A stretch of 64,000 nt of DNA from a virus. Shown here piece after piece: positions 1 through 49,063 of this stretch (position 1 is its first letter; each line of letters opens with the position of its first letter). A program made the position numbers and the translations under genes. The notes under the pieces were generated by a model. The model saw nothing but the letters and a program-made list of their open reading frames with translations, was not told the origin of the DNA and did no database searches. The DNA is taken from positions 11,452 through 75,451 of IMG/VR virus record IMGVR_UViG_3300031772_000013; one strand, written 5' to 3'.

Positions 1-691
1 TCAGGAGATTGCCGACACCGTCGCTTGGGCTGCGCGCGATAACGCAAGGGCGACGGAAGGTTTGCCGCGCGGTAGTGACGGTTGGCTCTTTCACCGAGCA
101 GTCTACGATTCTATCAAGTCCATTACCCAGTCGCTCCAGTCTACGGCGGAGTTTGCTGACTACGACGCGCCGAGACCGCTGACCGCAGCCGAGGCTGAAA
201 AGGTTGGAAAGATCGCCATGTCGGACGAGGGTATCAACCTGACAGACCCGAAGATTCGGGCGTTCATGACAAGTAAAACTGACGTTCTGCCGAGCCCAGA
301 CGAAACGACCGTGAAGGAGAACACGATGAGAAGCGAACGACTCAAGGGGAACACGATGAGAGACGAGCAAGACAACTCATGGGGCCGCGGGTACCACCCG
401 CTACCGGCACGCCTCTCGGGGCTCGGCCGCTTCATGGACGGCCTCGCGCCGACGAAGCTCCTCGACCACAAGGTGTGGCCCGACGATCCGACGGAGGGTG
501 GCGACATCCACATGCTCACGGTCGAGGCCACAGATGTGAGCATCGGTTTCCGCGATCTCGAAAGCCTCATCGAGAACGGGCTCATCAGGATCCAGAGCAA
601 CGAGCCTGGTGCGGTTTCGTTCTACTTCGTCGGCAAGTCAGAGCGAGATCCGGGCGGTTCCGGATGGGCACCGGTCAGGAGACGCCGATGA
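1..691 (+). CDS. Modular hypothetical protein, 5'-truncated by window edge, ending PVRRRR
   Basis: Frame is open from position 2. Internal duplicated linker VKENTMRSE/LKGNTMRDE. Stop overlaps the next ATG (ATGA 688-691). Confidence 0.6.
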   Translation, partial: QEIADTVAWAARDNARATEGLPRGSDGWLFHRAVYDSIKSITQSLQSTAEFADYDAPRPLTAAEAEKVGKIAMSDEGINLTDPKIRAFMTSKTDVLPSPDETTVKENTMRSERLKGNTMRDEQDNSWGRGYHPLPARLSGLGRFMDGLAPTKLLDHKVWPDDPTEGGDIHMLTVEATDVSIGFRDLESLIENGLIRIQSNEPGAVSFYFVGKSERDPGGSGWAPVRRRR

Positions 692-963
692 GCGACAAGA
701 AGCGCTGGGACGATCTGCACGCGGCCTACGCGAAGGCGGGCGAGGCCGCGAACGAGTACGATCGCCAGCTCAGTCGGAAATACGGCAGCATCTACCAGTC
801 GTCGTGGCTCAAGAAAGGGGATCGCGACAAGCTGGACGCGCTCCGCGCTCGCGCAGACAAGATCGGCGACAAGATCGTCGAGCTGCTTGTGCGCGTGAGC
901 CCCCGCGGAGAGGCGTGGCTCTCAGGCGTGCCCGCTCACTGGATCCGCTCCGAGCTGACCTAG
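688..963 (+). CDS. Hypothetical helical protein, probably prematurely stopped (TAG 961-963)
   Basis: ATG overlaps the previous stop with AGGAG upstream. The frame stays open after the TAG (EDAIRPKNEPLSVTPP...) and runs into the 1051 ORF. Confidence 0.5.
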   Translation: MSDKKRWDDLHAAYAKAGEAANEYDRQLSRKYGSIYQSSWLKKGDRDKLDALRARADKIGDKIVELLVRVSPRGEAWLSGVPAHWIRSELT

Positions 964-1050
964 GAAGACGCGATCCGACCCAAGAACGAACCGCTGTCCG
1001 TCACGCCGCCGAGCGCGTGGGGCGGTGGCGCACCGATTCAGGAGACCCCG

Positions 1051-2256
1051 ATGACCCAAGAACACGACGCCGAGGCCGCAGGTTCAGAGTACGCCCAAGA
1101 CCAGATAGAGAACGACTACTTCATGGGCTGGGTCCGCGAGCAGATGCTCGAGGCCAGCCGCATGGATCCGTCCACGGTGCTGCCGCTCGAAACGAAGAGC
1201 GACGCTCGCGTGATCGCGAGGAACATGCTCCAGCAGCTCGAAGAGGACACGAAGCGCGGGCTCGACCCGCGCGAAATCGCGAACCTGATCGGGGTCGACG
1301 GCACGACGCGCGACGACGTCAAAGAGTTCTTCAAGGGGTTCCGGGGCGCGCTGGATGAGTCGCGCGACTGGCTGGCGGACGAGCTCCTGGAGATCAAGGG
1401 GGGGTTGCGAGGTAGGCGCATGAGCGAGGCACCGCGAAGTCGTACCCCGGCGAGCGATCTGAGCCGCCTACACAATCCGTCAACCGCTGGCAACATCATC
1501 GTCTCGAACCGCAAGGACTTCGATCGCCTGCTCATCGAACGCCTCGGACAACTCGGCCGCCCGGACGCCGTCGAAATCGCCAGGGAGTACAAAAAACTGG
1601 CGGCGGCCTACTTCGGTGCGTCCAGAACGCCCGCTTCCACTGCGGATGAGATTCTGGATCTCGAACAACGTCGCCATGCGGGGCGACGGGGCGTGAGCGA
1701 AGCGAGTCGCTCCGGCGCGACGAAAGTCAAATGGGTTGCGAACGGATACGACGACGGCTTTCACGCATCCGTCGGACGGTATTTTCTGAAGACCATGCCC
1801 GTCGGCGACGGGCGCTTCGTCTGGAGCGTGTCGAAAGGCACCAAGATCGTCGCGGGCTCTGAAGCCGTCGATCCGTCCTGGCACGGCGGCTACAAGGGCG
1901 ATCCGTCGGAACACGGCGCGCGAGTCGCCGCCGAGCTTGCTATGACTCTTCACAAGACTCGCTCCTCCCGCACTGCTGCCGTGTCCGAGAGCCGACGTGG
2001 CCCCACCCCCGTCGAAGACCCCGAGTACGTCATTCAAGGCGCCTACAGCGACGGCCGCATCACGGAATCGTTCGGATTCGACGACGAAGACACCGCCCGC
2101 TCCGAAGCCTGGAAGCTCTCCAAGTCGCCCTACTTCGAGGGCGACCACGTCCGCATCATCACGCGCGACGGCGAGCTCGTGTGGGACTCGCGGGGCAGGG
2201 GTGTGAGCGAGGCCCGCCGCCCAAAAGCCCGTCGGCCGGTGCGGCGTCGGCGCTGA
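1051..2256 (+). CDS. Modular polyprotein of about 75-125 aa units separated by MSEA/VSEA/VSES/VSEA linkers, ending RRPVRRRR
   Basis: Linker motifs at 1420, 1693, 1981 and 2203. GGAG RBS upstream. Confidence 0.75.
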   Translation: MTQEHDAEAAGSEYAQDQIENDYFMGWVREQMLEASRMDPSTVLPLETKSDARVIARNMLQQLEEDTKRGLDPREIANLIGVDGTTRDDVKEFFKGFRGALDESRDWLADELLEIKGGLRGRRMSEAPRSRTPASDLSRLHNPSTAGNIIVSNRKDFDRLLIERLGQLGRPDAVEIAREYKKLAAAYFGASRTPASTADEILDLEQRRHAGRRGVSEASRSGATKVKWVANGYDDGFHASVGRYFLKTMPVGDGRFVWSVSKGTKIVAGSEAVDPSWHGGYKGDPSEHGARVAAELAMTLHKTRSSRTAAVSESRRGPTPVEDPEYVIQGAYSDGRITESFGFDDEDTARSEAWKLSKSPYFEGDHVRIITRDGELVWDSRGRGVSEARRPKARRPVRRRR

Positions 2257-2654
2257 CCGGCCCGTACGGGTCGCAAGAAGAGATCCTCGACTACATCAAC
2301 GAGACCGCCCCCTACCTAGGCGGGCTCTCGGATGTGCACACGCGCCTCAGTCTGTCCCCGGAGATGTTCAGGTGGAAGTTCCGCGAACTGCCCATCTCGA
2401 AGCTGCTGCACCTCAAATCTGATTGGCGCCGCTGGTACGAAGGTGAACGGGCAGAGCGCCGGGACGAAGACGGCGACGACAGTTACTTCGACGGGCTCGA
2501 ACAAGAGTGGAACGATGGCATCGTGGGGCCGATCATCGTGGTGATCATCGACGGAGAGATCGACATCGGCGACGGTTGGCACCGAGCTGCGATTGCCGTG
2601 ACGCAGGGGTGGAAGACGGTGCCGGCGGTGGTTGGAACGGAAAAGGACGTGTAA
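2253..2654 (+). CDS. Stand-alone ParB/Sulfiredoxin-like domain protein (start uncertain)
   Basis: PIIVV...IGDGWHRAAIA...VPAVV signature. Confidence 0.7.
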   Translation: MTGPYGSQEEILDYINETAPYLGGLSDVHTRLSLSPEMFRWKFRELPISKLLHLKSDWRRWYEGERAERRDEDGDDSYFDGLEQEWNDGIVGPIIVVIIDGEIDIGDGWHRAAIAVTQGWKTVPAVVGTEKDV

Positions 2655-2656
2655 GG

Positions 2657-3673
2657 GTGCTAGCCTCTGAAGAATTGTGGGATCTTTGGGGATCGTCTCA
2701 CGAGTGGTCGAGCGCGATCACCGGAGCGAGCGCCGAGATACTTACCATTCCCGGCTATCGCGTCCCTGATGATCCTAACGCCTTCACTGCTGCCAGGGCC
2801 TTGCTTGAAGCGCTTCAGCGCTCTCCACGTTCCCGCAAGGCGCTCTGGCACGGACGACCTCTCGAAAGGATCCCGAAGCCGGGGGAGCACGTCTCGCTCC
2901 CACTTACCGCAACAACCCCAGAGAAGAGCGAAGCGCTCCGTCTGAGCGCGCAAGGCGACACCCAGGCGCTCTTCACTTTTCCTGCGGGCACGCGCGCGCT
3001 ACGGTACAGCGACATCGAACGGATCGTGGCAGGGCGATTTATCGTGCGCAAGGTTCGCCGGGAGACGGACCCCTACTGGGGGACGCTCATCGTAGTGGTA
3101 CAACTTGAGGAGGACGCCACCGTGTACCGCCAACCCAAGGAGCCGGAACCACGCGCGCTAGAGGAGACCGCCGATCAGCCGAACCCCTGGTATCACCTGA
3201 CGGATCGAGCTAGGTTCAGGCTCGACCCCAGGTTCGCGCCGGAGGACAACGCCATCGCCATCGTCGATCGCTCAGGGCGCCCCGGCATCTACCTCGGGCA
3301 GGACGTGGAACGATGGGTCAACGGCTACAACTACTGGCGGCCGTTCGTCGTCGAGTTCGACGTCGATCCGTCTGTGGTCGAAGATCCTGGCGTGCATGGG
3401 AGATACGGCGGCGAGATGTTCGTCCCCGCCACCTCGTTCGACAAGCTCACCATCCTGCGCGTGATCCCGCTCGACGCCCACGCCCGGGAAGTGTTCGGGG
3501 AGGCAGGATGGATCGAGGGCGAGCTGGGGATCGAGTTCGACACCGGGGATCCGATTCGGCCGGGGCACCGCTCCTACCGGGGCTACCGATACTCCGGGCC
3601 GGACGTGCGCGACATGCCGCCCTCACAGGTGAACCACCTGAAGCGCCAGCTACGACAGGTGAAACGCCAATGA
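2657..3673 (+). CDS. Two tandem ADP-ribosyltransferase-like domains joined by an LEET linker
   Basis: Domain 1 ALWHGR...LTATT...IERIVAGRFIV is a degenerate R-S-E-type pattern. Domain 2 is WYHLT...GIYLG...GEMFVP. Confidence 0.5.
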   Translation: MLASEELWDLWGSSHEWSSAITGASAEILTIPGYRVPDDPNAFTAARALLEALQRSPRSRKALWHGRPLERIPKPGEHVSLPLTATTPEKSEALRLSAQGDTQALFTFPAGTRALRYSDIERIVAGRFIVRKVRRETDPYWGTLIVVVQLEEDATVYRQPKEPEPRALEETADQPNPWYHLTDRARFRLDPRFAPEDNAIAIVDRSGRPGIYLGQDVERWVNGYNYWRPFVVEFDVDPSVVEDPGVHGRYGGEMFVPATSFDKLTILRVIPLDAHAREVFGEAGWIEGELGIEFDTGDPIRPGHRSYRGYRYSGPDVRDMPPSQVNHLKRQLRQVKRQ

Positions 3674-4491
3674 GACAACAGCGGCTCGCCGAAGCACCGA
3701 GGCTGGTCTACCGCGGCACGCAGCAGCGTGAGCAGCACGGAGTTCGCGGTGCGACCTCGTGGACCGATTCGTTGCCGGTGGCGATGATCTGGTCAGCGGT
3801 GCCGGCCGACCCGTGGGCGTCGTCGCGCGAGCTGAACCACGCCCACTTCATCGACACGTCTACCATCCACGCGGCCCACCTGAACTTTCAAAACCCGCTG
3901 GCGCTCGACTACAACCAGGCGAGCGTCGGTGACATCATGCGCGCGCTTCGATACGGTGAGCCCGACGGCATCGCTGACGACGAGGTGCGCAAGGTGTTCA
4001 ACTACCTGCACAACCGGATGATGGGCAAGGCCGCGGGGGGCGAGTTCGGCTACGTTGTGTACGACGAGGACGGGGGCGAGATCGATCCCGACGATCGAGA
4101 GCTTTCGTTCGACATGAGTGACTCGCTCATTCGCGACATGCGCGACGAGTTCGAGTACGCCGACGAGAAGTTCGAGGTCGCGGATCGCATCGCCGCCGAC
4201 GCCTACGTGTTCTTCGACTCCAAGACGGTCCAGGCCGTCGCGCGCCGGCTCGGATTCGACGGGTTCGTCTACTGGGACATCTTCGAGGGCTGCGAGTACG
4301 CCGCGCGCGACCTGTTCGGCAAGGACGTGGACTGCGCCAACATCGAAGGTATCGAGGAGGCCACGGATCTGAAAGACGAGACGGTGTTCACGCACCGCAC
4401 GTACCGCCCACTCTCGGAGGAGAGCGTGGTGCCCGCGTGGGATGCACCGTCGCTCACTCTGCTGCCAGAGCTACCGAACTGGCTGCGCTAA
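3670..4491 (+). CDS. ADP-ribosyltransferase-like protein (polyvalent-protein type)
   Basis: LVYRGT...SWTDS...LNFQNP...GFDG pattern. N-terminal leader ends in LAEA. Confidence 0.6.
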   Translation: MRQQRLAEAPRLVYRGTQQREQHGVRGATSWTDSLPVAMIWSAVPADPWASSRELNHAHFIDTSTIHAAHLNFQNPLALDYNQASVGDIMRALRYGEPDGIADDEVRKVFNYLHNRMMGKAAGGEFGYVVYDEDGGEIDPDDRELSFDMSDSLIRDMRDEFEYADEKFEVADRIAADAYVFFDSKTVQAVARRLGFDGFVYWDIFEGCEYAARDLFGKDVDCANIEGIEEATDLKDETVFTHRTYRPLSEESVVPAWDAPSLTLLPELPNWLR

Positions 4492-4853
4492 CCCCCCGGC
4501 GGCTTCTTCTTCCCCGCCAAAAAATCCGAACTGTTCTCGAACGCCGCCCGAATGTCCGTCCGCGAGGGGGGTCTCACGGGCGTCAACTCTTGATCGAACT
4601 CGCGGAGTCTCCGCTCAAGCGCAAAGAGCTCGACGCGAAGACGCAAAACGTCCTCACAGGAATCAATCGTGCGACGCAACTCGATAGCGGCAACCTTGTC
4701 GATGTTCACGCGACCCGAGATCGATTTGAGCAAGAATCTCAAGTTCGAGACCTCTTCGCAGACCTCGGCGCCCCGTTTCACTTCACGAAGTAGCGCTTGG
4801 TACTCGTTTTTCGGGATCGTGATGTAATCCGGCACGGTTTTTTCCTCCCCCAT
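4488..4853 (-). CDS. Hypothetical coiled-coil protein
   Basis: ATG-start ORF converging on the 3670-4491 gene. Confidence 0.5.
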   Translation of the reverse strand: MGEEKTVPDYITIPKNEYQALLREVKRGAEVCEEVSNLRFLLKSISGRVNIDKVAAIELRRTIDSCEDVLRLRVELFALERRLREFDQELTPVRPPSRTDIRAAFENSSDFLAGKKKPPGG

Positions 4854-4882
4854 GATCGTAGTCGCAGTCTAGGCTTCGCGAC

Positions 4883-5413
4883 ATGACATCGATCATTCTC
4901 GCGGCAATTCTCACGCTGATGCCTGGCCCCTCCCCGAAATGGGGCGAGACGGGAACCGAGTTTCGCGCTCGCATGCAACTCATTGCCCAGTCCATCGACG
5001 AGGCGTCCAAGGTCGCGAAGGCGCCCCATCGCCACCAGCTCGCGATGACGATCGTGGTGACTTTCTGGGGCGAGTCTCGCTTCAGCCCGCTCGTTCAGGC
5101 CGGGGTACACCGGGGCGACGGTGGCCAGGCGATCTGCCTCGGGGGCCACCACCAAGAGAGCCTCAGTGAGGGGCAGTGGCTCGGGTTGGCTGGGCTCGAT
5201 CTCGAGAGTACGACCCGCTGCGCGACCCTCACCGCCAAGCGGCTCAAGAGCGCCTGGTGGTACTGCCACGGCCTCGATCCAAAATCTTCGTGGCCACAGG
5301 CTATCGTCCTCTACGGAACGGGTCGGACGTGTCAGGCCCAAGAGACGCGCTGGAAGAACATCTTCGTGGACCGAGGCGAGAAGTGGGCGGCGCTCACCGC
5401 GAAACGACCGTGA
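4883..5413 (+). CDS. Exported lysozyme/lytic-transglycosylase-like protein
   Basis: Hydrophobic N-terminus. WGESRF catalytic-Glu motif followed by RGDGGQAICL. Confidence 0.55.
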   Translation: MTSIILAAILTLMPGPSPKWGETGTEFRARMQLIAQSIDEASKVAKAPHRHQLAMTIVVTFWGESRFSPLVQAGVHRGDGGQAICLGGHHQESLSEGQWLGLAGLDLESTTRCATLTAKRLKSAWWYCHGLDPKSSWPQAIVLYGTGRTCQAQETRWKNIFVDRGEKWAALTAKRP

Positions 5414-6265
5414 GAGACGTCTCGCCGATAGTGCTGTATGACCACGACGGCTTCGCATCCGATGGGATCGACGGAGAGCCGAGCGTGCGCTGGCCGAAGA
5501 AGTTCCTGGGAGGCAAGCCGCACAAGCTCCTGGACACGCCGACGTCTCGTCGGAACATCGAGGAGTGGAACGGGCTGATGCAATGGGGCGGCCCTCCGCT
5601 CTACGGCGTACAGGAAGAGGGCTGAGGGGGCCAGGAAGGGCACCGGGCTCGAAAGCGCCGGTGCCCCCTGCTCGCCCGAGGACGAGTGGCGGCGGCCCAG
5701 TACCGCGACCTCGCGTCGAGGGTCAATCCGGATCGTCCGTGAACCCGTACACTCGGATCGGTTGCTCTTCTCCGACCACGTAGAGATCGACAGCCGCGAG
5801 CGCACAGAGCCGCTGAATGAAGTCCAGACCCGCACCCAGCGTGTCCATGTCGGTCGCGAGGCGATACGCCTCAAGCACGGCCTCACGCATCGACGGTCGC
5901 AGAACAACCTCCCGAGGCTTCCCCCTGCGAGCGCGCGCTCGCGCGGCCATCTCGTGACTGTGCGGACCCATCGGGTTCATTGGAGATAATCGCGCCGCCC
6001 CGGCGTGGGACGAGAGGGGGAATCGTGACGCCAGGGCGGCGCGGAGCCCGATGATACTCTCGAACTCACGAGAAGTGGCTCACATTCTCAAGGCGCCAAC
6101 CTCGCTTCCGAATCCACGATTCGAGCTTCGTCATCGAGTAGAACGTCGTGTCCCGCGACGCATAGAGGCCCAGGGGCTCTTTCACGACGAAGCTACGGGT
6201 CAACGAGAAGACCAGCGCCCGAAACTTCCCGGTCCTGGTCAGGATGCGATGGGATTCCCAGTCCA

Positions 6266-6568
6266 TCAGGTGTCCTTCGCGCGCTGAGTGGCGCGCTCCA
6301 GAAGATCCGCCGCCGTGACCTCGAACCGAGCGGCGAGTTCAAGCGCCTCCTTGCGTGTCGGGGAGCTCAAGAGCGAGATCGGATTCCGGAGCACGTTCAA
6401 GATCCGGCCGATGGCTTGCTTCCGGAGCGCTTGATCGACCTTCGAGGGCGCCCCTATCCCCGCCAACGTCGCTGCGAGCGCTGAAGGGGGCAGGAAGATT
6501 CGCTGATGCCCACAGGTGATCTCCACCCCGTTCTCGTCTGCCGTCACCGTCAGGACAGGCTCCGTCAC
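6266..6568 (-). CDS. Hypothetical protein
   Basis: GTG overlaps the stop of 6565-6996. Part of a leftward operon. Confidence 0.45.
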   Translation of the reverse strand: MTEPVLTVTADENGVEITCGHQRIFLPPSALAATLAGIGAPSKVDQALRKQAIGRILNVLRNPISLLSSPTRKEALELAARFEVTAADLLERATQRAKDT

Positions 6569-6996
6569 GGCTGCTCCTTCGAGAGCGCATGCGTAGCCCA
6601 GAACGCCTCGCTCTCGGCGCGCTGCTCGGGCGTGAGGCTCTCGTCCCAAGGCTCCCGGGGGGCCAAGGGGCCACCGAACGCCGTGTAGAGCACGCAAGGG
6701 TCGTTCTCATGAGGCCCAGCGATGACCGTGACGGTCCGAACCTCACGGGGCGCCCTCGCGCAGAGTCGAGAAGGCCCCGCACGGGTGCCACGGGCCTCCA
6801 ACGTGACCTCAGCGTCGCCCACCGGAGCGTCGCCCATGGCAGGGCCGTGGAGCCCGCAGGGGACAGATGGCAGCCCCTCCGGGAGTTCGAAGGTTTCGAT
6901 GAAGAACGAGTCGCGAGCCGCGAAGCGCTCGGCGACATGGGCGAAGACAGACTCGTGGAGGCCGTGGTCGAGGTGAGAGACGAGGGTGATTTTCAT
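6565..6996 (-). CDS. Hypothetical phage protein
   Basis: Clean ORF in a leftward operon. LYTAFGGPLAPREPWD...FWATHAL. Confidence 0.6.
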   Translation of the reverse strand: MKITLVSHLDHGLHESVFAHVAERFAARDSFFIETFELPEGLPSVPCGLHGPAMGDAPVGDAEVTLEARGTRAGPSRLCARAPREVRTVTVIAGPHENDPCVLYTAFGGPLAPREPWDESLTPEQRAESEAFWATHALSKEQP

Positions 6997-7024
6997 GATG
7001 GATGGACGCCTTGAAGGTGACAGA

Positions 7025-7676: not shown

Positions 7677-8249
7677 ATGCCCCGCCGTTCCGTCCCCGTC
7701 GTAACCCTCCTCCTGGTTGCCACGAACCTGCTCGCCTACCTCTTCGAGCTGGGGGCCGGCGGCCAGGCGGTCTGCTACGCCCACGGGCTGGTCCCGGCCA
7801 AGTTCGTCCACTCGGGCGCGCTCGGTCCGCTCTTCACGAGCCTCTTCCTCCACGACCCTGCGGGGCTGGCCCACATCGTCGGGAACATGGCCTTCTTGGC
7901 CCTTTTTGGCGCCATCGTCGAGGGAGCCCTCGGGGGGTCCCCGTTCCTGGGCCTCTACCTCGTCGCGGGCGCCCTCGGGGGCCTGATGCACGTCCTGGTG
8001 AGCCCAACGGCGACCGAGCCCCTGGTGGGCGCCTCGGGGGCCATCTTCGGGATCCTGGCCGTCGCTGGAGCCCTCCGGCCCCGCCTGCTCGGCTTCGTCG
8101 CCGTCTTCGTTGGGATCAACATCTTCCACGCCGTCGCGGGGGGCGGGGGCAACGTCTCATTTGGGGCGCATCTTGGCGGCTTCGTTGCCGGGGTCCTCGT
8201 CGTGGCGATCATGCGGGCGGCCGGCAGCGAATCTTTGGAGGCAACATGA
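7677..8249 (+). CDS. Rhomboid-family intramembrane serine protease
   Basis: HIVGNM, catalytic GASG and AHLGG motifs. About 6 TM segments. Confidence 0.92.
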   Translation: MPRRSVPVVTLLLVATNLLAYLFELGAGGQAVCYAHGLVPAKFVHSGALGPLFTSLFLHDPAGLAHIVGNMAFLALFGAIVEGALGGSPFLGLYLVAGALGGLMHVLVSPTATEPLVGASGAIFGILAVAGALRPRLLGFVAVFVGINIFHAVAGGGGNVSFGAHLGGFVAGVLVVAIMRAAGSESLEAT

Positions 8250-39531: not shown

Positions 39532-41250
39532 ATGAAGAAGAGCCTACCGATCAAGCGTGCCGTTTTCTGGCTCGACGGCGGCGCGCGCGTGCCCGGGTGG
39601 TCGACCGGCAAGACGTGGAACGGTTGGGGCGTGCCGCTGTTCGATGAGAGCCAGATCGAAGCGGCGAGAGCCGCGCTCCGAGCCGCTGGCATAGAGAGCG
39701 AGTTGCACAGCGGCGACATCTTGGAGCTCTGGCCCGTCGAGGAGCCCGATCTGATCACTGAGCACCAGGCGATTCGACTCAAGGGGAAAACCTACTACTG
39801 GCAACTCGACGGCCTCACCTGGAACGAAGAGAGCTCGGGCGGGCGCCGCGCCGATGAGGCTAGCGCAGACGTCTGGGGCCACGCTCCATTGCCTGAGTCG
39901 ATGTTAAGGGATGTGGCGCGCGATCTTCGTCGCTTGAACAATATGACGTCCTCGGCGGCGTTTCGTGAAGGCACTAAACTTCGCGTCTATCTTCAGCTCG
40001 CGGACGACGGGACTTGGGGGATCGGAGACCGCGAACCCACGTCCGGCCGATGGGGCTCGGCGGCCATACCTGGAAACAACCGCCGATTCAACGCCACCGC
40101 CGTTGCGCGCGATCTTCTCGCGCAGGTCGAACGAGATAGCCATGCCGAGGAGAGACACATGCGCGAAGACAACAAGAAAGGCCCTTTTTTCGTGACGCTC
40201 TCGGCAGCGCCGAATCGTGACTTCGGACCAGGGAGCCACGAGGCGTCAGTCAGAATCCCTCCTCGGAAGCAGAAAGTGGTGAGCCTCGCCTACGCTTCGA
40301 AGGTCGTGCAGCGCTTCATCGCAGAACATGATCTAGGCAGCGGCAACTGGACAGGCGGACTCATCACTGATGCTTCGGGGAAGGCGATCGGCCGTGTCGC
40401 CTACAACGGGCGCATCTTCGATCTCGATGACAAGATCATGTGGGACAACCAGACCTCTCCGGGCGTGCGCGAAGACCGGTTCGAGATCCCGGGCTGGATC
40501 GCCGCAGTGGGGTGGAGTGGAGTCGAGTGGGTTGTGTACGGTATCGGAGAAGACGAAGACGAAGCTGCTGCCGACGCCAGAAATTGGACGGAGACGCCGT
40601 GGCTTACGTTCTTGCCGATTTCCAAAGATCAGATCGCGGCCATGGGTGACCACAAAGAGGAGAACCGATGCGCCGCAATCGGTCTCGATGTCGGCAACGC
40701 CAGCCGTACGGCTCCGCGACATTTGCGCGCCGAAGAACATCGCGTGCGCGAAAGCCGGTTCGAGATCCCCGGCTGGAGCGTCGGGTACCACTCCGAGATC
40801 AGCGCTCACGCCGCAGTTCGAACGGGCAGGGGGCGCGACTGGCTCTTTGTCATGACGACGCCCGAGGACCGAGAGCCGCGGAGCCTCGACGAAGAGGTGA
40901 CGGTCGGGCTCTACTTCTTCGACGGAGACGACTGGGAGCAGATCGCGTACGTCGACTTCCCCGACGTCCGTTCGGTGATCAAACTGGGCGACGCAGAACT
41001 CCACCTCGTCATCGAGCACGGACTGTCGCTGGATCAATCCCGCGAGCTACTCGTCCAGGAGTTCGACGACTGGGACGGCGAAGACACGCTCACGTCGTGG
41101 ATGCAGACGATCCTCAAGGATGCTGGCGTAGAGCCGGAGGAGGCGGGCGCAGATGCCGCCACGCACGAGGCTACCGAGCAAATCTACAACGCCTCTCCAG
41201 CGCAGATCCTCGAGTACATGGACGAGCGATCGAAAGCCCTCAACGAGTGA
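39532..41250 (+). CDS. Modular polyprotein (about 5 small domains) with ADEA/MRED/VRED/VRES linkers
   Basis: Linkers at 40159, 40465 and 40744. Duplicated VRE[DS]RFEIPGW. One unit is the NRDF...LGSGNWTGG...RVAYNGR small phage domain. Confidence 0.7.
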   Translation: MKKSLPIKRAVFWLDGGARVPGWSTGKTWNGWGVPLFDESQIEAARAALRAAGIESELHSGDILELWPVEEPDLITEHQAIRLKGKTYYWQLDGLTWNEESSGGRRADEASADVWGHAPLPESMLRDVARDLRRLNNMTSSAAFREGTKLRVYLQLADDGTWGIGDREPTSGRWGSAAIPGNNRRFNATAVARDLLAQVERDSHAEERHMREDNKKGPFFVTLSAAPNRDFGPGSHEASVRIPPRKQKVVSLAYASKVVQRFIAEHDLGSGNWTGGLITDASGKAIGRVAYNGRIFDLDDKIMWDNQTSPGVREDRFEIPGWIAAVGWSGVEWVVYGIGEDEDEAAADARNWTETPWLTFLPISKDQIAAMGDHKEENRCAAIGLDVGNASRTAPRHLRAEEHRVRESRFEIPGWSVGYHSEISAHAAVRTGRGRDWLFVMTTPEDREPRSLDEEVTVGLYFFDGDDWEQIAYVDFPDVRSVIKLGDAELHLVIEHGLSLDQSRELLVQEFDDWDGEDTLTSWMQTILKDAGVEPEEAGADAATHEATEQIYNASPAQILEYMDERSKALNE

Positions 41251-42640: not shown

Positions 42641-42924
42641 AGCCTCTCACAATCCCAACTGTTCACCTGGGCGGCACCTCGGCTCAGAACCTCATTGATC
42701 CGCTTCTGACCGCCACGAAAGCCTTGCGGGCTGCCATGCGTGCCCTCGATGCGACGGAGCCCAATTCTCGCGACTACTACCTGCAAGGAGCAGACGCTTT
42801 TCAGCAAGCCGTGCGCGAACAAGATGCGCGGGGACGCAAGCTTCGCGAGGTCTCCGATGAGCTATACGAGATCGTAGAAGCGGTGCAGGAGCAGGCCGAC
42901 GCGCGGGTGCGGCAGAGGCGTTAG
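42637..42924 (+). CDS. Small helical hypothetical protein
   Basis: ATGA overlap. PTVHLGGTS...PNSRDYY. Confidence 0.55.
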   Translation: MKPLTIPTVHLGGTSAQNLIDPLLTATKALRAAMRALDATEPNSRDYYLQGADAFQQAVREQDARGRKLREVSDELYEIVEAVQEQADARVRQRR

Positions 42925-42975
42925 TTAGCCTTCTCCTTGCGCGCGGCCTGCGGGCGGGGCATCATCGAACTTCAC

Positions 42976-43317
42976 GGGGCCGATCGGTTTCGACGCTGGA
43001 AAGGAGAACCGTCTCGCGTGCAAGAGCGCCCATCTCTTCAAGGGGCATCTGCTAGTTGCCAACGACAACAGCATCGCTCTGCCCGTCCAGAAGGCGGCCT
43101 GAGCCGTCGGGCTAGGAAGATCGTCCTGGTACCAAGTCCGGCGCAATCACTAGGGCTGGCTCATCGAGAAGCCTCGAGTAGATGAGCGAGGATCACACGA
43201 GAAGTAGGGCGCGGCCGAATCCGCGAACTCAGCCGGCGGGGACACGCCGGCTACGCACGTGAACGAGAGACGCTTCAACTTCTAACGGACCGGGGTTCGA
43301 TTCCCCGCGGCTCCACC
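42976..43317 (+). ncRNA. ssrA: tmRNA (one-piece), tag peptide (A)ANDNSIALPVQKAA
   Basis: 5' GGGGCCG pairs with CGGCTCC (43308-43314), including the G3:U pair. T-arm CGGGG TTCGATT CCCCG. Discriminator A followed by CC. pk1 stems AAGAG/CTCTT and GCCC/GGGC. Tag ORF 43058-43102. Confidence 0.93.
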
Positions 43318-43358
43318 GGCCCCCCTCCCGGGGTCGTGGTGGAGGCAGAAGGGAATCA

Positions 43359-43409
43359 CCGCCCTTCGCCCCAGAAACGGCTCGGCAACCCCGGGCCGTT
43401 TCGTTTTCT
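43359..43409 (+). repeat. Copy 1 of a ~50-bp direct repeat containing a terminator-like hairpin
   Basis: ccgcccttcgccccagaaacggctcggcaaccccgggccgtttcgttttct. Confidence 0.8.
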
Positions 43410-43722
43410 ACGTGGCGGGCTTCGAGGATCCACACCGCGGAGACGCTCCAGCGGCGAACGCCGCGCGGATCACCTGCGTCGTGTCCGCGCCATGTGCCTT
43501 CACCAACGCTAGCTTTGCCTCGGGGTAGGTAACGGGGATCAGTCCCTTGGACGAGTACCAGAGCAGGTTGATCGGCCACTCGCGCGCAAACTGTTCGGTG
43601 GTGCTTTCCTGCCATCCGTCGGGCAACACCCACGTGTCCGAGCCGGCCGAGAGCATGAAGAAGTGGTCGAGGGTGCAGGGCGAGTGCGTTTTCACTTCCT
43701 CCAGCGTCATTGTGAAACGCAT
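43408..43722 (-). CDS. Hypothetical protein
   Basis: Clean ORF ending in repeat copy 1. Confidence 0.55.
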   Translation of the reverse strand: MRFTMTLEEVKTHSPCTLDHFFMLSAGSDTWVLPDGWQESTTEQFAREWPINLLWYSSKGLIPVTYPEAKLALVKAHGADTTQVIRAAFAAGASPRCGSSKPAT

Positions 43723-43734
43723 GGCTGCCGACTC

Positions 43735-44328
43735 TTACGGGAAGGCCCCGAGCGTGCCGGTCCCCGCCTGCGTAACGCTCGCTCCGGCAATCTCGCTTGC
43801 CTTGAGCCAGCTTCCCGGTACGGACGTGAAGCCATCCGATCCGTTGATCACGATGAGCGGGAGGTTCGCGTTGTTGTAGGGGACCGCGATCGTTGCCTTG
43901 GTCGCCCCTACGGGGATCCGCACAGATGAAAGACTCCGATAGGTCTGGAAACCGGGTGCCATGTCCCCGCCCGCGACGCTATTCACGATCATCAGGAAGT
44001 CGGCGGGGAACACTGGAGCGGCAACGAAACTCACTGCGACCCCAAACGAGAACTCGTGATTCGCGTTCGGAACGTCAGGGTTCTGCACGTTCAAACTCAC
44101 ATCGACCTCAAGGAAGTTCCCTGGAGTGACGACGGGGAGCACGACCCGAAGCGGCACGGTGCCACTCGGGTTACTTGGAATCTCGGTATCGAACGGGCCG
44201 ACCGTCGCCGGCAGCGTGCGCGTTTTCTCAACCTGCGCATATCCGACCTGGATGAGGCCGCCGCCGCCACCAGAGCGCTCAGGGTACGTCTCGGTCGCGT
44301 ATCGTCCCTTGCCGATGACTCTGCTCAT
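43735..44328 (-). CDS. Beta-rich putative virion protein with N-terminal IGKGRYATETYP motif
   Basis: Shared N-terminal motif followed by a poly-Gly linker. Confidence 0.6.
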   Translation of the reverse strand: MSRVIGKGRYATETYPERSGGGGGLIQVGYAQVEKTRTLPATVGPFDTEIPSNPSGTVPLRVVLPVVTPGNFLEVDVSLNVQNPDVPNANHEFSFGVAVSFVAAPVFPADFLMIVNSVAGGDMAPGFQTYRSLSSVRIPVGATKATIAVPYNNANLPLIVINGSDGFTSVPGSWLKASEIAGASVTQAGTGTLGAFP

Positions 44329-44380
44329 GACCGAGAGTCTACCGGGGCCTCGTGGACTGCGCTAGAGAGGGCACGAATGC

Positions 44381-44430
44381 CCGCCCTTCGCCCCAGAAGC
44401 GGCCCGGTAACCCCGGCCGTTTCGCTTTCT
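44381..44430 (+). repeat. Copy 2 of the ~50-bp direct repeat
   Basis: ccgcccttcgccccagaagcggcccggtaaccccggccgtttcgctttct (4 substitutions and 1 indel versus copy 1). Confidence 0.8.
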
Positions 44431-44445
44431 GGTAGGCTACCCTCC

Positions 44446-44967
44446 ATGTCAGACGACGACTATCGGATGGAGCACCAGGCGCCTGACGCGGAGAGCGGCT
44501 CGCCACTCTACGACGTCACGCTAAACGGCACGTACCCTCGAGATTTCTACGATCGCCCGAGCTGGTATCTTTCCGGGCACGATTCCGACTGGGAGGCGAT
44601 CGGGATCATCAGGGCAAGCCTCAACAAACCGGACAGGCGGCTTTGGATCTACCGCGCAGTTCCGCGTGGCGTCCGCAACTTCAACACGGGTGACTGGGTA
44701 TCCATCACCAAGAGCTACGCGCGGGACCACGGGAGGCATCCGACAGACACGGAGCAGGACATGCCCGTACTCGCCGCGCGAGTATACGCGCACGACCTCT
44801 ACACGAGCGGCGATTCGCTTCAGGAGTGGGGCTACGTGGGGCCGACGAAAGAAGGTCTGGTGGTGTTCCGTCCGCGCAAGAAGCCCAGCGAGGAGCAGAT
44901 TGAAGCGAGGAACGTTGCTAGACGAAGCGCCTCTTCGAGAGCGCGTGTCGCGAGGTGGAGAGACTAG
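44446..44967 (+). CDS. Polyvalent-protein-type domain, possibly ART-like
   Basis: YRMEHQAP...IYRAVP...GDWVS...YARDHG...GDSLQEWGY. Confidence 0.55.
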   Translation: MSDDDYRMEHQAPDAESGSPLYDVTLNGTYPRDFYDRPSWYLSGHDSDWEAIGIIRASLNKPDRRLWIYRAVPRGVRNFNTGDWVSITKSYARDHGRHPTDTEQDMPVLAARVYAHDLYTSGDSLQEWGYVGPTKEGLVVFRPRKKPSEEQIEARNVARRSASSRARVARWRD

Positions 44968-46229
44968 TCTCGCCCCACCACAACGACAGCCGGGAACTCC
45001 CTGGCCTTCAGATGCCAGAGCGCAACGAAGCGGTGTGCCCCCTCGATGATGAACGGCCCCTTCTCGTCGATGCCGATGATGAGCGGGCTGATCTCGCCAG
45101 AGCGCCCGATCAGCTCGGCCAGGCGCTCGCTCCGCTCGAAGTCGTCCGCGGCGTAGAACACCGAGCGCGGGTTGCCGAGGTCGGACATCGGCACGACGCG
45201 AACGCCCGGGAGCTCTTCCTGCTCCTCCATGTAGTCGTCGATCGATTCGACGTTCGGAACGTCTTTGCGCACGAGGCGCCCGTCGACGTACTCGCCAGCT
45301 CGTGGGTAGCGCGAGCCTGTCGATTCGATCAGGGATTCGAGCGAGGTCGCCTCGCGCAATCCGAATGGACGGCTCTTCTGCCCCCACAACGCTTGCGCCG
45401 CCTCCGTGTGGGGCTCGTCCGGGAGAAAACTGAGCCCCGATAGTTGCTCCGCCCACACGTAGAGCTCCGTCGCGATCCCCTGCCGACGGTATTCGGGGCG
45501 CACCTCGATGGCGCCCTTCAGCGTTTCGTCCGAAGGACGCTCTCTCCCGTAGAACAGGGAGCCGACGACCTTGTTTCCATCGACCGCGATGATGGTGGCG
45601 TAGCCGCCCTTGTGCGGAAGCCAGTGCATCTCGTATCCGTTGAACGGTTTACTCTTCTGAGCGCGCCTCAACGAGTCCCGCAAGGAGTCGTCCAGGGCCG
45701 CCCACTTGCGGGGGTCATCGCTTGGGCCTGATTCGCGCATCTCACCTGCGCCGCGCTCGACGAGAAACACGGCCGGGATGCTCTTCCAAGCCATTCCGAT
45801 CGCGTAGCTGACCCTGCCACGCCCGTCGCCGATGGCGGTGTCCCCGTTGCGGAGCGTCACGACGACGATGGGAGGCACGGTGCGGGGCGTCCACTGGACA
45901 GCGCGCTTGGCCCAGGCCGCCCCTCGGAACGAGTGTAGTTCAAGGACACGGTCTTGCTCGTCGAGTTCCTTGAGATCCCCGTGCCGCCATTCGGGCCACG
46001 AAGAGAGATCGTCGTAGATGCCGAGTTCCTTGAGCGACACGACGCGGGATTCGATGGCGAAGTCGTCAAGGTTCAGCTCGTGCTCGCTGGAGTCACTCAT
46101 GTGATCCAGAGCGTCCGCCAAGTCTTGCGGATCGGCCTCGATGCTTTGCGCTGGCTCTCGCATCGTCGCGACTGAGCGGCGAGTGAGCTGGCTCCCTTTG
46201 GGTTCGATTCGGTAGTAGAGCTTGGGCAT
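44964..46229 (-). CDS. Polyprotein: ParB/Srx - GNAT acetyltransferase - ParB/Srx
   Basis: PPIVV...GDGRGR; IEVRPEYRRQGIATELY; SPLII...IEGAHR. Linkers MREP, GAGEMRES, LREA. Confidence 0.75.
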   Translation of the reverse strand: MPKLYYRIEPKGSQLTRRSVATMREPAQSIEADPQDLADALDHMSDSSEHELNLDDFAIESRVVSLKELGIYDDLSSWPEWRHGDLKELDEQDRVLELHSFRGAAWAKRAVQWTPRTVPPIVVVTLRNGDTAIGDGRGRVSYAIGMAWKSIPAVFLVERGAGEMRESGPSDDPRKWAALDDSLRDSLRRAQKSKPFNGYEMHWLPHKGGYATIIAVDGNKVVGSLFYGRERPSDETLKGAIEVRPEYRRQGIATELYVWAEQLSGLSFLPDEPHTEAAQALWGQKSRPFGLREATSLESLIESTGSRYPRAGEYVDGRLVRKDVPNVESIDDYMEEQEELPGVRVVPMSDLGNPRSVFYAADDFERSERLAELIGRSGEISPLIIGIDEKGPFIIEGAHRFVALWHLKAREFPAVVVVGRD

Positions 46230-46234
46230 TGTTT

Positions 46235-47044
46235 TCACACGAACGTGAAGACGACCTCTACCGAGTCGTCTTTGGCGCGACGAGCGGCGACGAGACGGTG
46301 GTTGCCGTCCACGATCCACCCGGACCCGTTCTGAAAGACGCCGATCTCGATGGGCGGGAGCCAGACGCCCTCGCCGCGCGCCTGTTGCACCGATCGCAGT
46401 CGCGCCTTGTCGATGGCGGTCGCGCGCAAGCTGTTCAATTCCTCCAGAGGGACGATAGCAGACACGGTCCAGTAGTCGCCGACCAAGTGGTACGACGGCG
46501 GCCCGTACGCCGAACGAGGGGAACCTCGATCTGGATCTGCCGGCAAGGACCGGTACTTGTCGAAGGGGCCTTGTTTACGAGCGGTCGTCTCGCGCATCTC
46601 ACCTGCACCACCTTCGTCACGCCAGCGCGCGTCCTCGACGACCGCGACAAACTCGCTCTCCGGCATGAACATCTCGATCGCGCAGTCGCCACGGAAGTGC
46701 GCGGCGAGAACGCGATGGTTTCCGTCCTGCACGTACGCTTTGCCCGACCGTCGCCGTTGCGAACGCCCTCCGTAGGAGGCGGTCCCGGGCGGAAAGGGCG
46801 TGCCCCGAGCTGCGTACCGCCTCGCGCGCTCGACGCGCTCCTGACTCGATTCTTCTTCGGTCTGGAAGTCCAGGTAGTCGAGCGGCACGGTAGCGCGCAC
46901 CCAGATCGGGCCGCGATCAAACATCCACTCATACATGGCGGGATCGGGGGGCGCCCCGTGACGTCCGCGCGCGTAGAGGCGCTGGTAACTGTCGACGACG
47001 TCGTGGACGTCGAGCCGCTCGATGATGGCGAAGTCGCACGTCAT
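46235..47044 (-). CDS. Tandem ParB/Srx domains joined by GAGEMRET
   Basis: VQDGNHRVLAA and IVDGNHRLVAA. Confidence 0.75.
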   Translation of the reverse strand: MTCDFAIIERLDVHDVVDSYQRLYARGRHGAPPDPAMYEWMFDRGPIWVRATVPLDYLDFQTEEESSQERVERARRYAARGTPFPPGTASYGGRSQRRRSGKAYVQDGNHRVLAAHFRGDCAIEMFMPESEFVAVVEDARWRDEGGAGEMRETTARKQGPFDKYRSLPADPDRGSPRSAYGPPSYHLVGDYWTVSAIVPLEELNSLRATAIDKARLRSVQQARGEGVWLPPIEIGVFQNGSGWIVDGNHRLVAARRAKDDSVEVVFTFV

Positions 47045-48171
47045 TCTCGTGCTCCGAGCGCGTAGAGCCTAGCGAGGAGGCGGTGCGCACGCTCCTCGTC
47101 GAGCGGTTCCTTCTGCCCGAACTCCCGACGGACGTAGAACGCGAGTGTCGAGTCGTCGTCAACCTCGTCTCGCGTGACCTTCCCGTCGAGGATGTCTTCC
47201 ACGTAGGCGAGTAGTCGGTTTGAAACACGCGAAGCGAATCCGGCATCCACGAGCTTCGGCCGACCGTCTTCGTCGAACGCTACCGAGTCTTCCTTGAACT
47301 CTGGCATCGCCCAGCCCTCGGCGAGCATGTACGGCGCGACGTGGTCCCAGAGTTCGCGTATCTTCACGCCCGCGTTCCAGGCTCGGGATCTCCCTCGGAT
47401 ACACTCGCGCACGATGACTCCGTGCTCAGGATCCCATCGCTCGAACGCCGCCACGTACGGGCGCACTTCCGGGATCTGGCTCGCAACGGAGAGCCATTCG
47501 GCCTCGTCGTAAAGCCTCTCTCTCTTTCTTCCTCTGGCGACCTTGTACGCGAAGTGGGCATCGCAGAACACGACACCCTCTCCACCGGCACCGATGTACT
47601 CAAGCGGTGGAGTCGCTCCGGCTTCGATCGCGTACGTGAGAGCTATCTCGATCCATGTGGTCTCTCCGCCGGGTAGATCCCTTGGGTTCGAGAGCGCTTC
47701 GATGGCGCGGTGGCCGCCTCGAAAGTAGCTCGACTGCGGGACGCTCTCCGCCACACGCCCCCCGCTGAGTCGCCTTGGGCGAGCACCAGGCCGAAGGATG
47801 ACCTCGTGCTCGTGCCCGAACGCCCGGCTACCGAGCGCCGTCGCGTCGCCGTTCGGGTACGTTACGGCCCAGTGGAGCAGCACGTCCTCCGGGCGCAGCT
47901 CGAACGTCTCGAAGGCCGTCATGTACGTCGGACGGTCGGTGGATAGGCTCATCCCGCCCACTCCCTGGTCACCAGGCTTCGTGCGGCGGTACGCGGTGAG
48001 CGTCGGCCCAGGGAAGACCTGCTCGACGGCCTGCTCGAGGGCGGCTCGCTGCCGGGTCGGGAGCGCCTCGTAGCGTTCGAGAAGCTCGCGCTTCGCTGCG
48101 GGATCGTTGTAATGGATCCAAAAAGCGAGCGGCTGGTGCAGGACGTCGAGGGCCAGGGAGAGTTGGAGCAT
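47041..48171 (-). CDS. ART-like domain + kinase-like domain joined by VAES
   Basis: AYRR...SLST...EHEVIL; YIGAGGEGVVF..AYKV...LVDAGF. Confidence 0.65.
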   Translation of the reverse strand: MLQLSLALDVLHQPLAFWIHYNDPAAKRELLERYEALPTRQRAALEQAVEQVFPGPTLTAYRRTKPGDQGVGGMSLSTDRPTYMTAFETFELRPEDVLLHWAVTYPNGDATALGSRAFGHEHEVILRPGARPRRLSGGRVAESVPQSSYFRGGHRAIEALSNPRDLPGGETTWIEIALTYAIEAGATPPLEYIGAGGEGVVFCDAHFAYKVARGRKRERLYDEAEWLSVASQIPEVRPYVAAFERWDPEHGVIVRECIRGRSRAWNAGVKIRELWDHVAPYMLAEGWAMPEFKEDSVAFDEDGRPKLVDAGFASRVSNRLLAYVEDILDGKVTRDEVDDDSTLAFYVRREFGQKEPLDEERAHRLLARLYALGARE

Positions 48172-48175
48172 CGCG

Positions 48176-49063
48176 CTACAGTGCCTCGCGCCCCTCTTCG
48201 ACCAGCACCGTTTCGATGTCGCCGCCTCCCGCCGTCGGCGTGTGCCCCGGGTCGAAGATCACGACGCGGTCCCAGTCGTCGTCGTCGCGCGCGATGTGCC
48301 AGCCGATGTTCAGGAAGTGTACGTCGCGTAGGTAGACGCCGTTCGATGCGAGCATCGCGAGCGACTCGCCGAGAGGTGCCCATGCGGGGCCGTCGAACTT
48401 TGTCTCGGTGATGCGAAGCGCCTTGTGCCCCGCGTCTTCGGGTGAGCTGAAGCCCAGCTCGTGCTTGTAGTAGTCTCTGATCTCATGTTGTCGGTGGCTG
48501 CGCGGGTGGCTGCCGAGAACGTGCCATGCGGTTGCTGCTTCCCGGTACGTCATCAAACCACTGATCGCTGTGTCGAAGCTCGACCGCTCCCACGGTTTCT
48601 GGCCGGGTGCGACCCTCACGCTGGTTGGCCGTGTTGGCGTGTGGAGCCCGAGCTTCGCGTTCGTGTACTCCGACGTGGCGATCATCGTCCCGCCACCGTG
48701 GTGTCCGAGTTCCTTCGCGCGGTACTCCTTGAACACCGGCTCGATGCCTTCCCTCACGATCGCCCAGACTTTGCGATTTCGTCCACCCGTCACGAGGTCC
48801 GGCATGATCCGGCGGATGATCCTGATCTCGGGGAAGCCGCCGTCGCCGTACTGCTCCTCGCCTATGAGACCCATGATCTTCGACCAGATAGGCCCCTCGG
48901 TCGGATCGATGCTGAGCTTCACAACCCATGGCGGTTCGCTCTCGAAGACGCAGCCCCAGTGACCGCACCCGAGCATGCGTCCTAGGGACATACCGACGGC
49001 GTGCTCGATAGCGGCGCGCTTCGTGAGAAGCTGCTCGACCCACGCTTTCTTGCGAATAGGCAT
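48176..49063 (-). CDS. Protein-kinase-like fold protein
   Basis: LGCGHWGCVF, WVVKL, RDVH..NI, IFDPG. Confidence 0.75.
   Translation of the reverse strand: MPIRKKAWVEQLLTKRAAIEHAVGMSLGRMLGCGHWGCVFESEPPWVVKLSIDPTEGPIWSKIMGLIGEEQYGDGGFPEIRIIRRIMPDLVTGGRNRKVWAIVREGIEPVFKEYRAKELGHHGGGTMIATSEYTNAKLGLHTPTRPTSVRVAPGQKPWERSSFDTAISGLMTYREAATAWHVLGSHPRSHRQHEIRDYYKHELGFSSPEDAGHKALRITETKFDGPAWAPLGESLAMLASNGVYLRDVHFLNIGWHIARDDDDWDRVVIFDPGHTPTAGGGDIETVLVEEGREAL

Follow-up and report, generated by a model that had tools for sequence, protein, structure and literature searches.

A glutamate-centred linker motif with basic tails in polyvalent-type proteins of an uncultured phage lineage: candidate processing sites of virion-associated polyproteins

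Introduction

Why do the multi-module proteins of a single virus contig carry a short, glutamate-centred motif again and again in the linkers between their modules, and could the chains be cut there? The question is raised by a 64,000-nt stretch of DNA (hereafter the window), bases 11452–75451 of the 75,451-bp IMG/VR virus contig IMGVR_UViG_3300031772_000013 (63% G+C), in which an initial annotation described effector-type polyproteins in two gene clusters, all punctuated by one motif, [VML]-x-E-[ADST], and proposed that it is a cleavage and/or packaging signal. A linker signature at module junctions is real, is selected at the protein level and is found lineage-wide, it consists of two variants rather than one motif shared by all the proteins, and with a probability of roughly 0.45 it represents processing sites of virion-associated polyproteins.

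Two variants of the linker motif

The 14 motif copies first reported all lie inside called open-reading frames (ORFs), on the plus strand at 1420, 1693, 1981, 2203, 3158, 3685, 40159, 40465 and 40744, and on the minus strand at 46163, 45740, 45359, 46597 and 47754. Expected counts were taken from shuffles within each protein, with its composition kept. The loose pattern [VML]-x-E-[ADST] occurred 22 times in the plus-strand cluster against 11.2 expected (z 3.4), 14 times in the second cluster (8.6 expected, a marginal excess) and 54 times in the 17,032 aa of other proteins (53 expected); such a pattern is expected ca. 3–4 times per 1000 aa, and the early caution that the motif carries little information holds for the loose form as it was written. 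A sharper form lies inside it in the plus-strand cluster, G-[VM]-[SG]-E-[AS]-[RPS]-R, and the tight pattern [VM]-x-E-[AST]-[RPS]-R was present there in 10 copies against 0.1 expected, with no copy in the 17,032 aa of other proteins and none in the second cluster. The enrichment over background that the initial annotation had set as a check is therefore present for tight type A as defined here, only about twofold for the loose form and marginal in the second cluster. As the tight form is confined to the plus-strand cluster, and the second cluster has a looser form of its own, sequence comparison separates two variants: type A, G-[VM]-[SG]-E-A-R-R, and type B, [MVL]-R-E-x, which in the second cluster reads [MVL]-R-E-[STDAP]. 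Chance is ruled out by the shuffles as a source of the tight type A copies, single loose copies such as RALEET may still be chance.

Type A is laid out most fully in a 401-aa multi-module protein (1051..2256, plus strand), with copies MSEA (1420..1431, E126), VSEA (1693..1704, E217) and VSES (1981..1992, E313, at the start of a shuffled C-terminal module) in disordered linkers, and a further VSEA (2203..2214, E387) directly ahead of a conserved Arg-rich C-terminal tail, ARRPKARRPVRRRR (2212–2253). An AlphaFold2 model (63-row alignment, mean predicted local distance difference test (pLDDT) of 76) places folded modules at residues ~1–121, 150–210, 224–300 and 320–380, confidently for all except ~224–300, where confidence is lower. 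The segments with pLDDT < 50 are 124–149, 213–223, 272–284, 305–315 and 388–393; three of the four linker copies fall within them, and the fourth (385–388) ends at the first residue of the last. A motif-like MLEA (1144..1155, E34) lies within a helix of module 1. Homology segments to the 401-aa protein begin or end at E126, E313 and E387, as read from per-protein segment tables, which we used instead of a pooled statistic of high-scoring segment pair endpoints that was confounded by one dominant module. Foldseek of the model against the PDB gave no match at E ≤ 0.001 and so no known fold.

Conservation of type A and the level of selection

A search with the 401-aa protein among 5.8 billion proteins returned 76 homologues beyond its own record, each of which covers only 15–35% of the query, and the modules have therefore been shuffled. 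The tight motif occurs 44 times in these homologues against 1.0 expected, the Asp and Gln versions showing no comparable enrichment. Within 10–15 residues past the end of module 1 (WLADELL), in an otherwise variable Gly/Arg linker, aliphatic-x-E-A-R-R is found in ~40 of 47 homologues, which for type A bears out the expectation that homologues keep the motif at the same junctions; the same pattern is kept both ahead of and behind the C-terminal module. Half of the homologues end in a basic C-terminal tail, compared with 8% of all genes in four genomes, and this is often x-x-E plus RRPKA(R/K)RS(V/A)RRRR up to the stop codon, the Glu standing 13–17 residues before the end. Some linkers contain double sites 16 residues apart, and true N-termini of the form M-[A/S/T]-[R/K], which resembles the sequence after the Glu, account for 28% of these proteins vs. 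7% genome-wide.

At the DNA level the survey took in 62 metagenome loci (soil, peat and sediment), which between them gave 78 distinct sites. The first motif residue was Val at 28 sites, Ala at 21, Leu at 17, Ile at 7 and Met at 5, with a first codon of ATG, GTG or TTG at only 21 of the 78 (27%), whilst the Glu codons (45 GAG, 33 GAA) were background-like. Because few first codons can act as starts, and the Glu codons follow the background, the type A motif is, on this codon evidence, selected at the protein level. An internal start or fusion scar was considered for type A and is ruled out by the 27% of start-type first codons across these sites.

The second cluster and the polyvalent assignment

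Type B copies occur on both strands of the second cluster. A 572-aa multi-module protein (39532..41250, plus strand) carries MRED (40159), VRED (40465) and VRES (40744), which flank a widespread ~85-aa module at residues 215–300 and duplicated 'RFEIPGW' modules, with one copy starting the module at residue 405. A 424-aa protein (44964..46238, minus strand) has, by Pfam, a GNAT domain (194–268) between a ParB-like module and a second, weakly matching one (368–419), and its type B copies MREP (46152–46163), MRES (45729–45740) and LREA (45348–45359) flank the GNAT domain. On the same strand follow a 269-aa two-module protein (46235..47044) with GAGEMRET (46586–46597) and a 376-aa protein (47041..48171) with GGRVAES (47743–47754), the copy at residue 140 standing between an N-terminal module and a possibly kinase-like C-terminal region that begins at ~144–152, no more than a lead, from the ESM Atlas, for residues ~150–376. 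The minus-strand cluster begins with a 295-aa protein (48176..49063) that is without the linker motif, and the kinase-like identity once given to it found no hidden Markov model support. In ParB/GNAT homologues [MVL]RE[STADG] occurs 21 times against 5.5 expected, and MRE alone 13 times against 1.5. The placing of the motif at module boundaries holds for the linker copies of the 401-aa protein, for the 424-aa copies around GNAT and for the 572-aa copies around module 215–300; it fails for MLEASR (residues 32–37 of the 401-aa protein), within a confident helix, and RALEET, QRLAEA and ATMREP are only putative boundaries.

Pfam and PHROGs searches of nearly all cluster proteins gave almost no matches. 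Among the domains of the polyvalent class, GNAT alone passes the Pfam cut-off in the window and the ParB_N matches are sub-threshold, and so the domain calls made earlier stand for GNAT and weakly for ParB, with ADP-ribosyltransferase (ART) and kinase lacking Pfam confirmation in the window; MuF and MPTase domains were not found among the hallmark families tested. Homologues carry ParB_N/ParBc, GNAT and ART-PolyVal (28.7 bits, cut-off 31.2), with ART-PolyVal and ParB_N seen only in homologues or below the cut-off. As the homologues carry ParBc, GNAT and ART-PolyVal domains, we class these modular proteins as polyvalent-type, in agreement with the initial annotation. Two or more unrelated domains are combined in one chain, as in the 424-aa protein, with GNAT between two ParB-like modules, and in the 401-aa protein, which folds as four to five separate modules. 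The longest contigs with homologues of the two clusters agree in size in three cases (130,516, 83,922 and 30,426 bp), which suggests that the protein families of both clusters lie on the same contigs elsewhere.

A shared motif in the putative structural block of related phages

Gene calling by codon usage gave 117 genes on the contig, among which PolA, a primase-helicase, helicases, an integrase, a transfer-messenger RNA (tmRNA) and hub/lysozyme-like tail genes are recognisable, and a capsid, portal, terminase or head protease is not. Five related IMG/VR records of 51–96 kb have the replication genes in common (71–87% identity), with terminal repeats in two of them. The contig is a fragment, despite a completeness estimate of 100, since every structural-block family of the relatives is absent from it. 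It holds ~20 polyvalent genes in its two clusters, vs. 3–4 in the relatives. Neither megablast nor tblastn found a relative among 50,697 GenBank phages, and the phage lineage itself therefore appears, by these searches, to be new. Related loci were collected with the polymerase gene and a capsid-candidate gene as queries, an IMG/VR search for related loci with the 401-aa protein found none; the lineage is one of uncultured, high-GC phages of soil and sediment, with dozens of 50–165-kb contigs among those fetched.

In the complete relatives, a gene for a 450–1200-aa Arg-rich protein lies directly upstream of the most conserved structural gene (~430 aa). The Arg-rich protein consists of a conserved 13-residue N-terminal leader, MGLYDDRLADLSE, which ends in L-S-E and is followed by [A/S/P]-R-R (ten loci), a protamine-like region with 15–24% Arg+Lys and repeats such as V-A-E-[A/T]-[P/R]-R-R-R-R, and, at the C-terminus, a hydrophobic domain that is likewise conserved. 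Of the 26 full-length Arg-rich proteins in a further 30 IMG/VR loci, 24 had 1–6 tight copies of the motif, and in the basic regions 119 of 420 Glu residues had an aliphatic residue at −2 and A/S/T at +1, compared with ~32 expected by our own composition estimate. A second kind of basic tail, Arg/Lys-rich and C-terminal (..YLATRKKRRR before the stop), was seen in other structural-block proteins (G002 72952–74511 and neighbours).

Directly upstream of the Arg-rich protein gene, in every locus with enough upstream sequence, is a gene for a ~220-aa protein, found in the relatives and not in the window. Two of four intein-free copies match Transglut_core (PF01841; 26.4 and 29.4 bits, cut-off 23), and Cys110, His144 and Asp160 are invariant in 8 sequences. 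In five relatives (L085:2941–4938, L088:3316–4944, L091, L096 and L112) a Hint/LAGLIDADG intein sits exactly at Cys110 (..GGD|C-intein-..VSN|CDE.., with the Cys as the +1 residue), and an intein at the predicted catalytic Cys argues that this Cys matters and that the gene is essential. The shared motif in an Arg-rich protein beside a gene with a cysteine-peptidase fold gives circumstantial support, on sequence grounds, for a link between the polyvalent proteins and the virion.

Candidate proteases and the possible processing of polyvalent chains

The statement that no maturation protease is visible in the window is right in so far as no head protease can be recognised, it overlooked a rhomboid-family intramembrane serine protease gene (7677..8249, plus strand; PF01694, 76.2 bits, cut-off 22.6). 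No other protease could be recognised in the window. The four related genomes and two metagenome loci all keep this gene, at a distance of a few kb from the polyvalent cluster. The literature, searched for rhomboid proteases encoded by phages, offered no example, and scans of four genomes for GDSG, HExxH and papain motifs gave nothing in the clusters.

We favour, at the somewhat less than even probability given above, the reading that the motif copies are processing sites of virion-associated polyproteins, because the pattern of constraint resembles that at Glu-specific phage maturation sites and is found in disordered junctions, before tails, after a leader and in tandem; both cleavage and packaging are inferred. 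The chains, with modules of ~60–200 aa on disordered Gly/Arg-rich linkers, would be cut at or beside the Glu into single modules and short Arg-rich peptides, and the same enzyme would cut up the protamine-like protein, rich in Arg, that the relatives encode in their structural block. By their Arg-rich arms and tails the proteins would stay bound to the phage DNA, to be packed into the particle and delivered along with it. The scissile bond would follow the Glu, by analogy with T4, phiKZ and SPN3US, or, for a papain-fold enzyme with the aliphatic residue in the P2 position, would lie one residue before that. For the enzyme we put forward, tentatively and with more doubt than confidence, the predicted Cys-His-Asp peptidase of transglutaminase fold. 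The wider proposal is a shade less probable again: a new maturation class, in which a transglutaminase-fold peptidase would cut aliphatic-x-Glu-Ala-Arg-Arg in both polyvalent chains and a protamine-like core protein, an adenovirus-like core chemistry in a tailed phage, with Arg arms and tails as the packaging handle.

A number of observations weigh against the processing of virion-associated chains. Every structural-block family of the relatives was sought in the contig by tblastn and all were absent, and as the contig has no head genes the link to the virion rests on the relatives; there, the block is a putative structural/head module by gene order only, and the polyvalent clusters are not adjacent to it. 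PHROGs, Pfam and PDB searches of the block recognised no capsid, portal or terminase, the AlphaFold model of the capsid candidate had a pLDDT of 37.6, the ESM Atlas gave no match for this candidate, and a PDB sequence search with four structural-block proteins gave an intein match only. Prohead proteases of the S77/S78 type (PF03420, PF04586) were not detected in five relatives, control genomes for PF03420 being equally without signal, and hhalign of 10 structural-block families gave a probability of ≤1% against T4 gp21 and nothing against gp22, gp23, gp24 or gp68. Structural-block proteins with peptidoglycan-binding domains (PG_binding_1, PG_binding_3, LysM) lie near the transglutaminase-fold gene, and its product could be a wall hydrolase or lysin instead. 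At the level of single sites, the fifth tight copy of the 401-aa protein, MLEASR, lies in a helix with a pLDDT of 96 and is conserved with its domain, the motif Val codons in this genome are GTG in 9 of 11 cases vs. 39% genome-wide, and in type B an Ala takes the place of the Glu ahead of the 'IPGW' module at ~4 of 10 aligned junctions, and a stand-alone homologue has its initiator Met in line with the motif Met.

The same features could be read as docking rather than cleavage, with uncleaved motifs, or the Arg-rich arms around them, tethering intact multi-domain proteins. The partner would be DNA, the interior or portal of the capsid, or a chaperone, for which the acidic-tailed protein described below is an example. 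The motif always lies within Arg-rich, DNA-binding-like sequence and ahead of a conserved basic C-terminal tail, the cluster is headed, here and in relatives alike, by a conserved protein whose C-terminus is poly-acidic, no protease could be linked to the motif, and for several polyvalent proteins transfer without processing is known (PMC5512222). A docking signal does not readily account, however, for a typical protease site (aliphatic residue at −2, free residue, invariant Glu, small residue, Arg) which fits the Glu-specific phage proteases, nor for its position exactly where modules exchange and stand-alone genes begin, and tandem sites that would release 14–16-residue peptides are hard to explain by it; we hold docking to be unlikely. 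Somewhat less likely still is cleavage outside the virion, in which early enzymes would be released from cytoplasmic polyproteins, in the manner of RNA viruses, by a protease of the host or by some other protease of the phage (an unrecognised module, or the rhomboid at 7677–8249), and the motif in the structural block would be a second use of that enzyme. All relatives keep the rhomboid gene within a few kb of the cluster, and the clusters stand among early-type and replication genes, outside the structural block. V(P4)-S-E-A(P1) fits two of three positions of the bacterial rhomboid recognition motif reported by Strisovsky and colleagues (2009), but that motif is also said to require a hydrophobic P2', where Arg is found here, and to have no place for the invariant Glu. 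Rhomboids, moreover, cut in or beside membrane helices, of which these proteins have none, and the recurrence of the motif in a structural-block protein beside a peptidase-fold gene points to the particle.

The codon evidence bears on a third possibility, that genes were fused in frame and that M/V/L is a retained or used internal start, with a purine-rich (Gly/Arg-coding) ribosome-binding site ahead of it, a reading that mainly concerns type B. In the window 12 of 12 strong copies begin with ATG, GTG or TTG, the Val codons show the GTG bias given above, and Shine-Dalgarno (SD)-like scores at motif sites are intermediate between real starts and controls, although the difference from controls is not significant (p = 0.17, n = 15). 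The ..IQETPM.. junction of the relatives is clearly an SD site plus ATG in frame, split in this genome by an in-frame TAG, and the type B Met is better kept than the Glu besides its alignment with a stand-alone initiator, such that type B is possibly, on these alignments, a start-codon relic. Type A first codons, by contrast, are only 27% start-capable, with Ala at 27% and CTC/CTG Leu and Ile common, Val far outnumbers Met, a start 14 codons ahead of a stop makes no sense at the tail sites, and a scar leaves unexplained an invariant Glu with free synonymous codons and a conserved A-R-R. A fusion scar or working gene signal is thus improbable as an account of the whole. Least probable is that a low-information tetrapeptide recurs by composition in Glu-, Ala- and Arg-rich linkers: the loose pattern is only twofold enriched, the clusters also show a slight excess of the reversed and Asp control patterns, and the motif is also found inside folded helices, yet the shuffles yield 0.1 and 1.0 copies where 10 and 44 are observed (in the plus-strand cluster and the homologues), Asp/Gln versions are not comparably enriched and positions are conserved at independent junctions.

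If the sites are indeed cut, as in the processing that we favour, a short signature would mark virion-delivered or polyprotein-derived effectors across a whole uncultured lineage, dozens of 60–200-aa modules would be delimited as functional units for anti-defence and host-takeover screens, and the phage would have a new way of making many small host-takeover proteins from few genes. The 2017 prediction of polyvalent-protein processing would become testable, with a defined site and a candidate enzyme, and tailed phages would gain their first examples of a maturation protease from the papain superfamily and of protamine-like core peptides. Should the sites be uncut, the motif and tail are still a conserved signal that current annotation misses entirely.

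Gene arrangement of the clusters and other features of the contig

The plus-strand cluster starts ~5.5 kb ahead of the window, at genome position 5934, and comprises 12–13 co-oriented genes. At its head stands the conserved protein with a poly-acidic C-terminal tail (..EEEEDEDDEGDE), encoded at genome 5234–5644, before the window, and likewise heading the Arg-tailed cluster at G002 49438–50373 and G005 47988–48848; this protein may mimic DNA or act as a chaperone of the basic arms. It has a related stretch in the 572-aa protein (residues 125–243). The window opens with the C-terminal two thirds of a 338-aa ORF (2..691, plus strand; beginning at genome 11126), which ends in an Arg tail, APVRRRR and stop, and whose last codons double as the SD site and ATGA start of the next gene. 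This is a 91-aa 'DKKRW' module gene (688..963, plus strand) with an in-frame TAG at its end (961–963), standing where all homologues keep a Trp (..LTWEDAIRPK..). The 87-nt stretch that follows (964–1050) is conserved coding sequence in the relatives, which have the 91-aa and 401-aa genes joined as a single ORF. For the TAG, a nonsense mutation, a mistake in assembly and a site of read-through are all conceivable. ATG 1051 has an AGGAGA site of its own, which the relatives keep in frame as ..IQETPM... Near-identical junction elements lie at 668–691 and 1030–1054, gcaccgGTCAGGAGACgCCGATGA and gcaccgATTCAGGAGACcCCGATGA, one of which reads APVRRRR-stop with an overlapping ATG and the other APIQETPM in frame, a single extra base switching the Arg tail to read-through.

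Downstream of the 401-aa gene is a ParB-like ORF (2181..2654, plus strand) with a weak ParB_N match and no canonical start (ATG/GTG/TTG) after the upstream stop. Its coding signal is strong from the base right after the upstream TGA, where a CTG overlaps the stop (CTGA), and a −1 slippery heptamer, C CCA AAA (2218–2224), lies 30 nt upstream in the Arg-tail codons (junction at 2218–2256). Expression by CTGA coupling or by a −1 shift is possible from these sequence features, and a shift would fuse the 401-aa protein to the ParB-like module. A 354-aa protein (2609..3673, plus strand) with the loose copy RALEET (3158–3169) and a 273-aa protein (3670..4491, plus strand) follow, the N-terminus of the latter being an 8-residue leader plus motif, MRQQRLAE|APR (3685–3696).

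The two halves of the second cluster are separated by a complete tmRNA gene (window 42976–43318, plus strand; Rfam RF00023, 117 bits). Four minus-strand proteins (43735–44328, 57306–58085, 60512–61081 and 62866–63192) share only an N-terminal GxGRYAxETYPxR peptide, and the same family occurs in the tail-fibre-like region of relatives (G002 77178, 78058 and 79302; G001 26482 and 29634). The sole match in a scan of genome contigs was a 5.8-kb contig of a 'Candidatus Binatia' metagenome-assembled genome, a weak lead to the host.

Comparison with known systems

For polyvalent proteins, packaging and the proteolytic release of domains were predicted as a class (Iyer, Burroughs, Anand, de Souza, Aravind 2017, PMC5512222). 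The proteins described here resemble them in that unrelated small effector-type domains are joined in one polypeptide of a mobile element, domain shuffling is rampant and homologues carry ParB_N, GNAT and ART-PolyVal (PF18760); they differ in that most modules match no described domain, no zincin-like or papain-like peptidase domain lies within the chains, and many medium ORFs (270–570 aa) take the place of giant proteins. A search of that paper (PMC5512222) by term found neither a conserved linker motif nor an Arg-rich C-terminal tail. Among the large multi-domain, head-packaged proteins of phage P1 (Dar/DdrB) and N4 (vRNAP), which have ParB-like or enzymatic domains, DdrB is processed before packaging, as cited in PMC5512222. 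These either have an internal metallopeptidase domain or have none, unlike the chains here, and no homology to them was detected. We know of no shared linker motif in P1 Dar/DdrB or N4 vRNAP.

The sites themselves are closest in form, by sequence only, to the substrates of T4 gp21, phiKZ gp175 and SPN3US gp245, being small/aliphatic-x-Glu-small with several per protein. SPN3US gp245 cleaves behind the Glu of A-X-E, P4 being a Val and P1' a Ser (PMC10052503), and T4 gp21 trims internal proteins and the packaged ADP-ribosyltransferase Alt (PMC9958956). The substrates of the T4 prohead protease thus include an ADP-ribosyltransferase delivered with the DNA; the short N-terminal leader ending in Glu of the relatives' Arg-rich protein is similar to the T4 capsid-targeting sequence. 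Unlike prohead-protease systems, however, the relatives have no detected S77-family protease, the sites lie between modules and before C-terminal tails and not only after N-terminal propeptides, and an extended A-R-R follows the Glu.

In adenovirus, adenain cuts pVII and pX (the mu peptide) in the particle, at the site (M/I/L)-X-G-G|X. If our reading is right, the phage system would work alike, a papain-superfamily-type cysteine protease cutting Arg-rich, DNA-condensing precursors within the particle into short basic peptides, which is an analogy and not membership, as protease clan (transglutaminase fold here), cleavage site and virus realm all differ. Polyvalent proteins and x-x-Glu maturation sites are both already known, and what appears to be new is that polyvalent-type proteins have a conserved linker-plus-tail signature, that a protamine-like protein of the structural block shares it, and that a candidate cysteine peptidase is encoded beside the latter.

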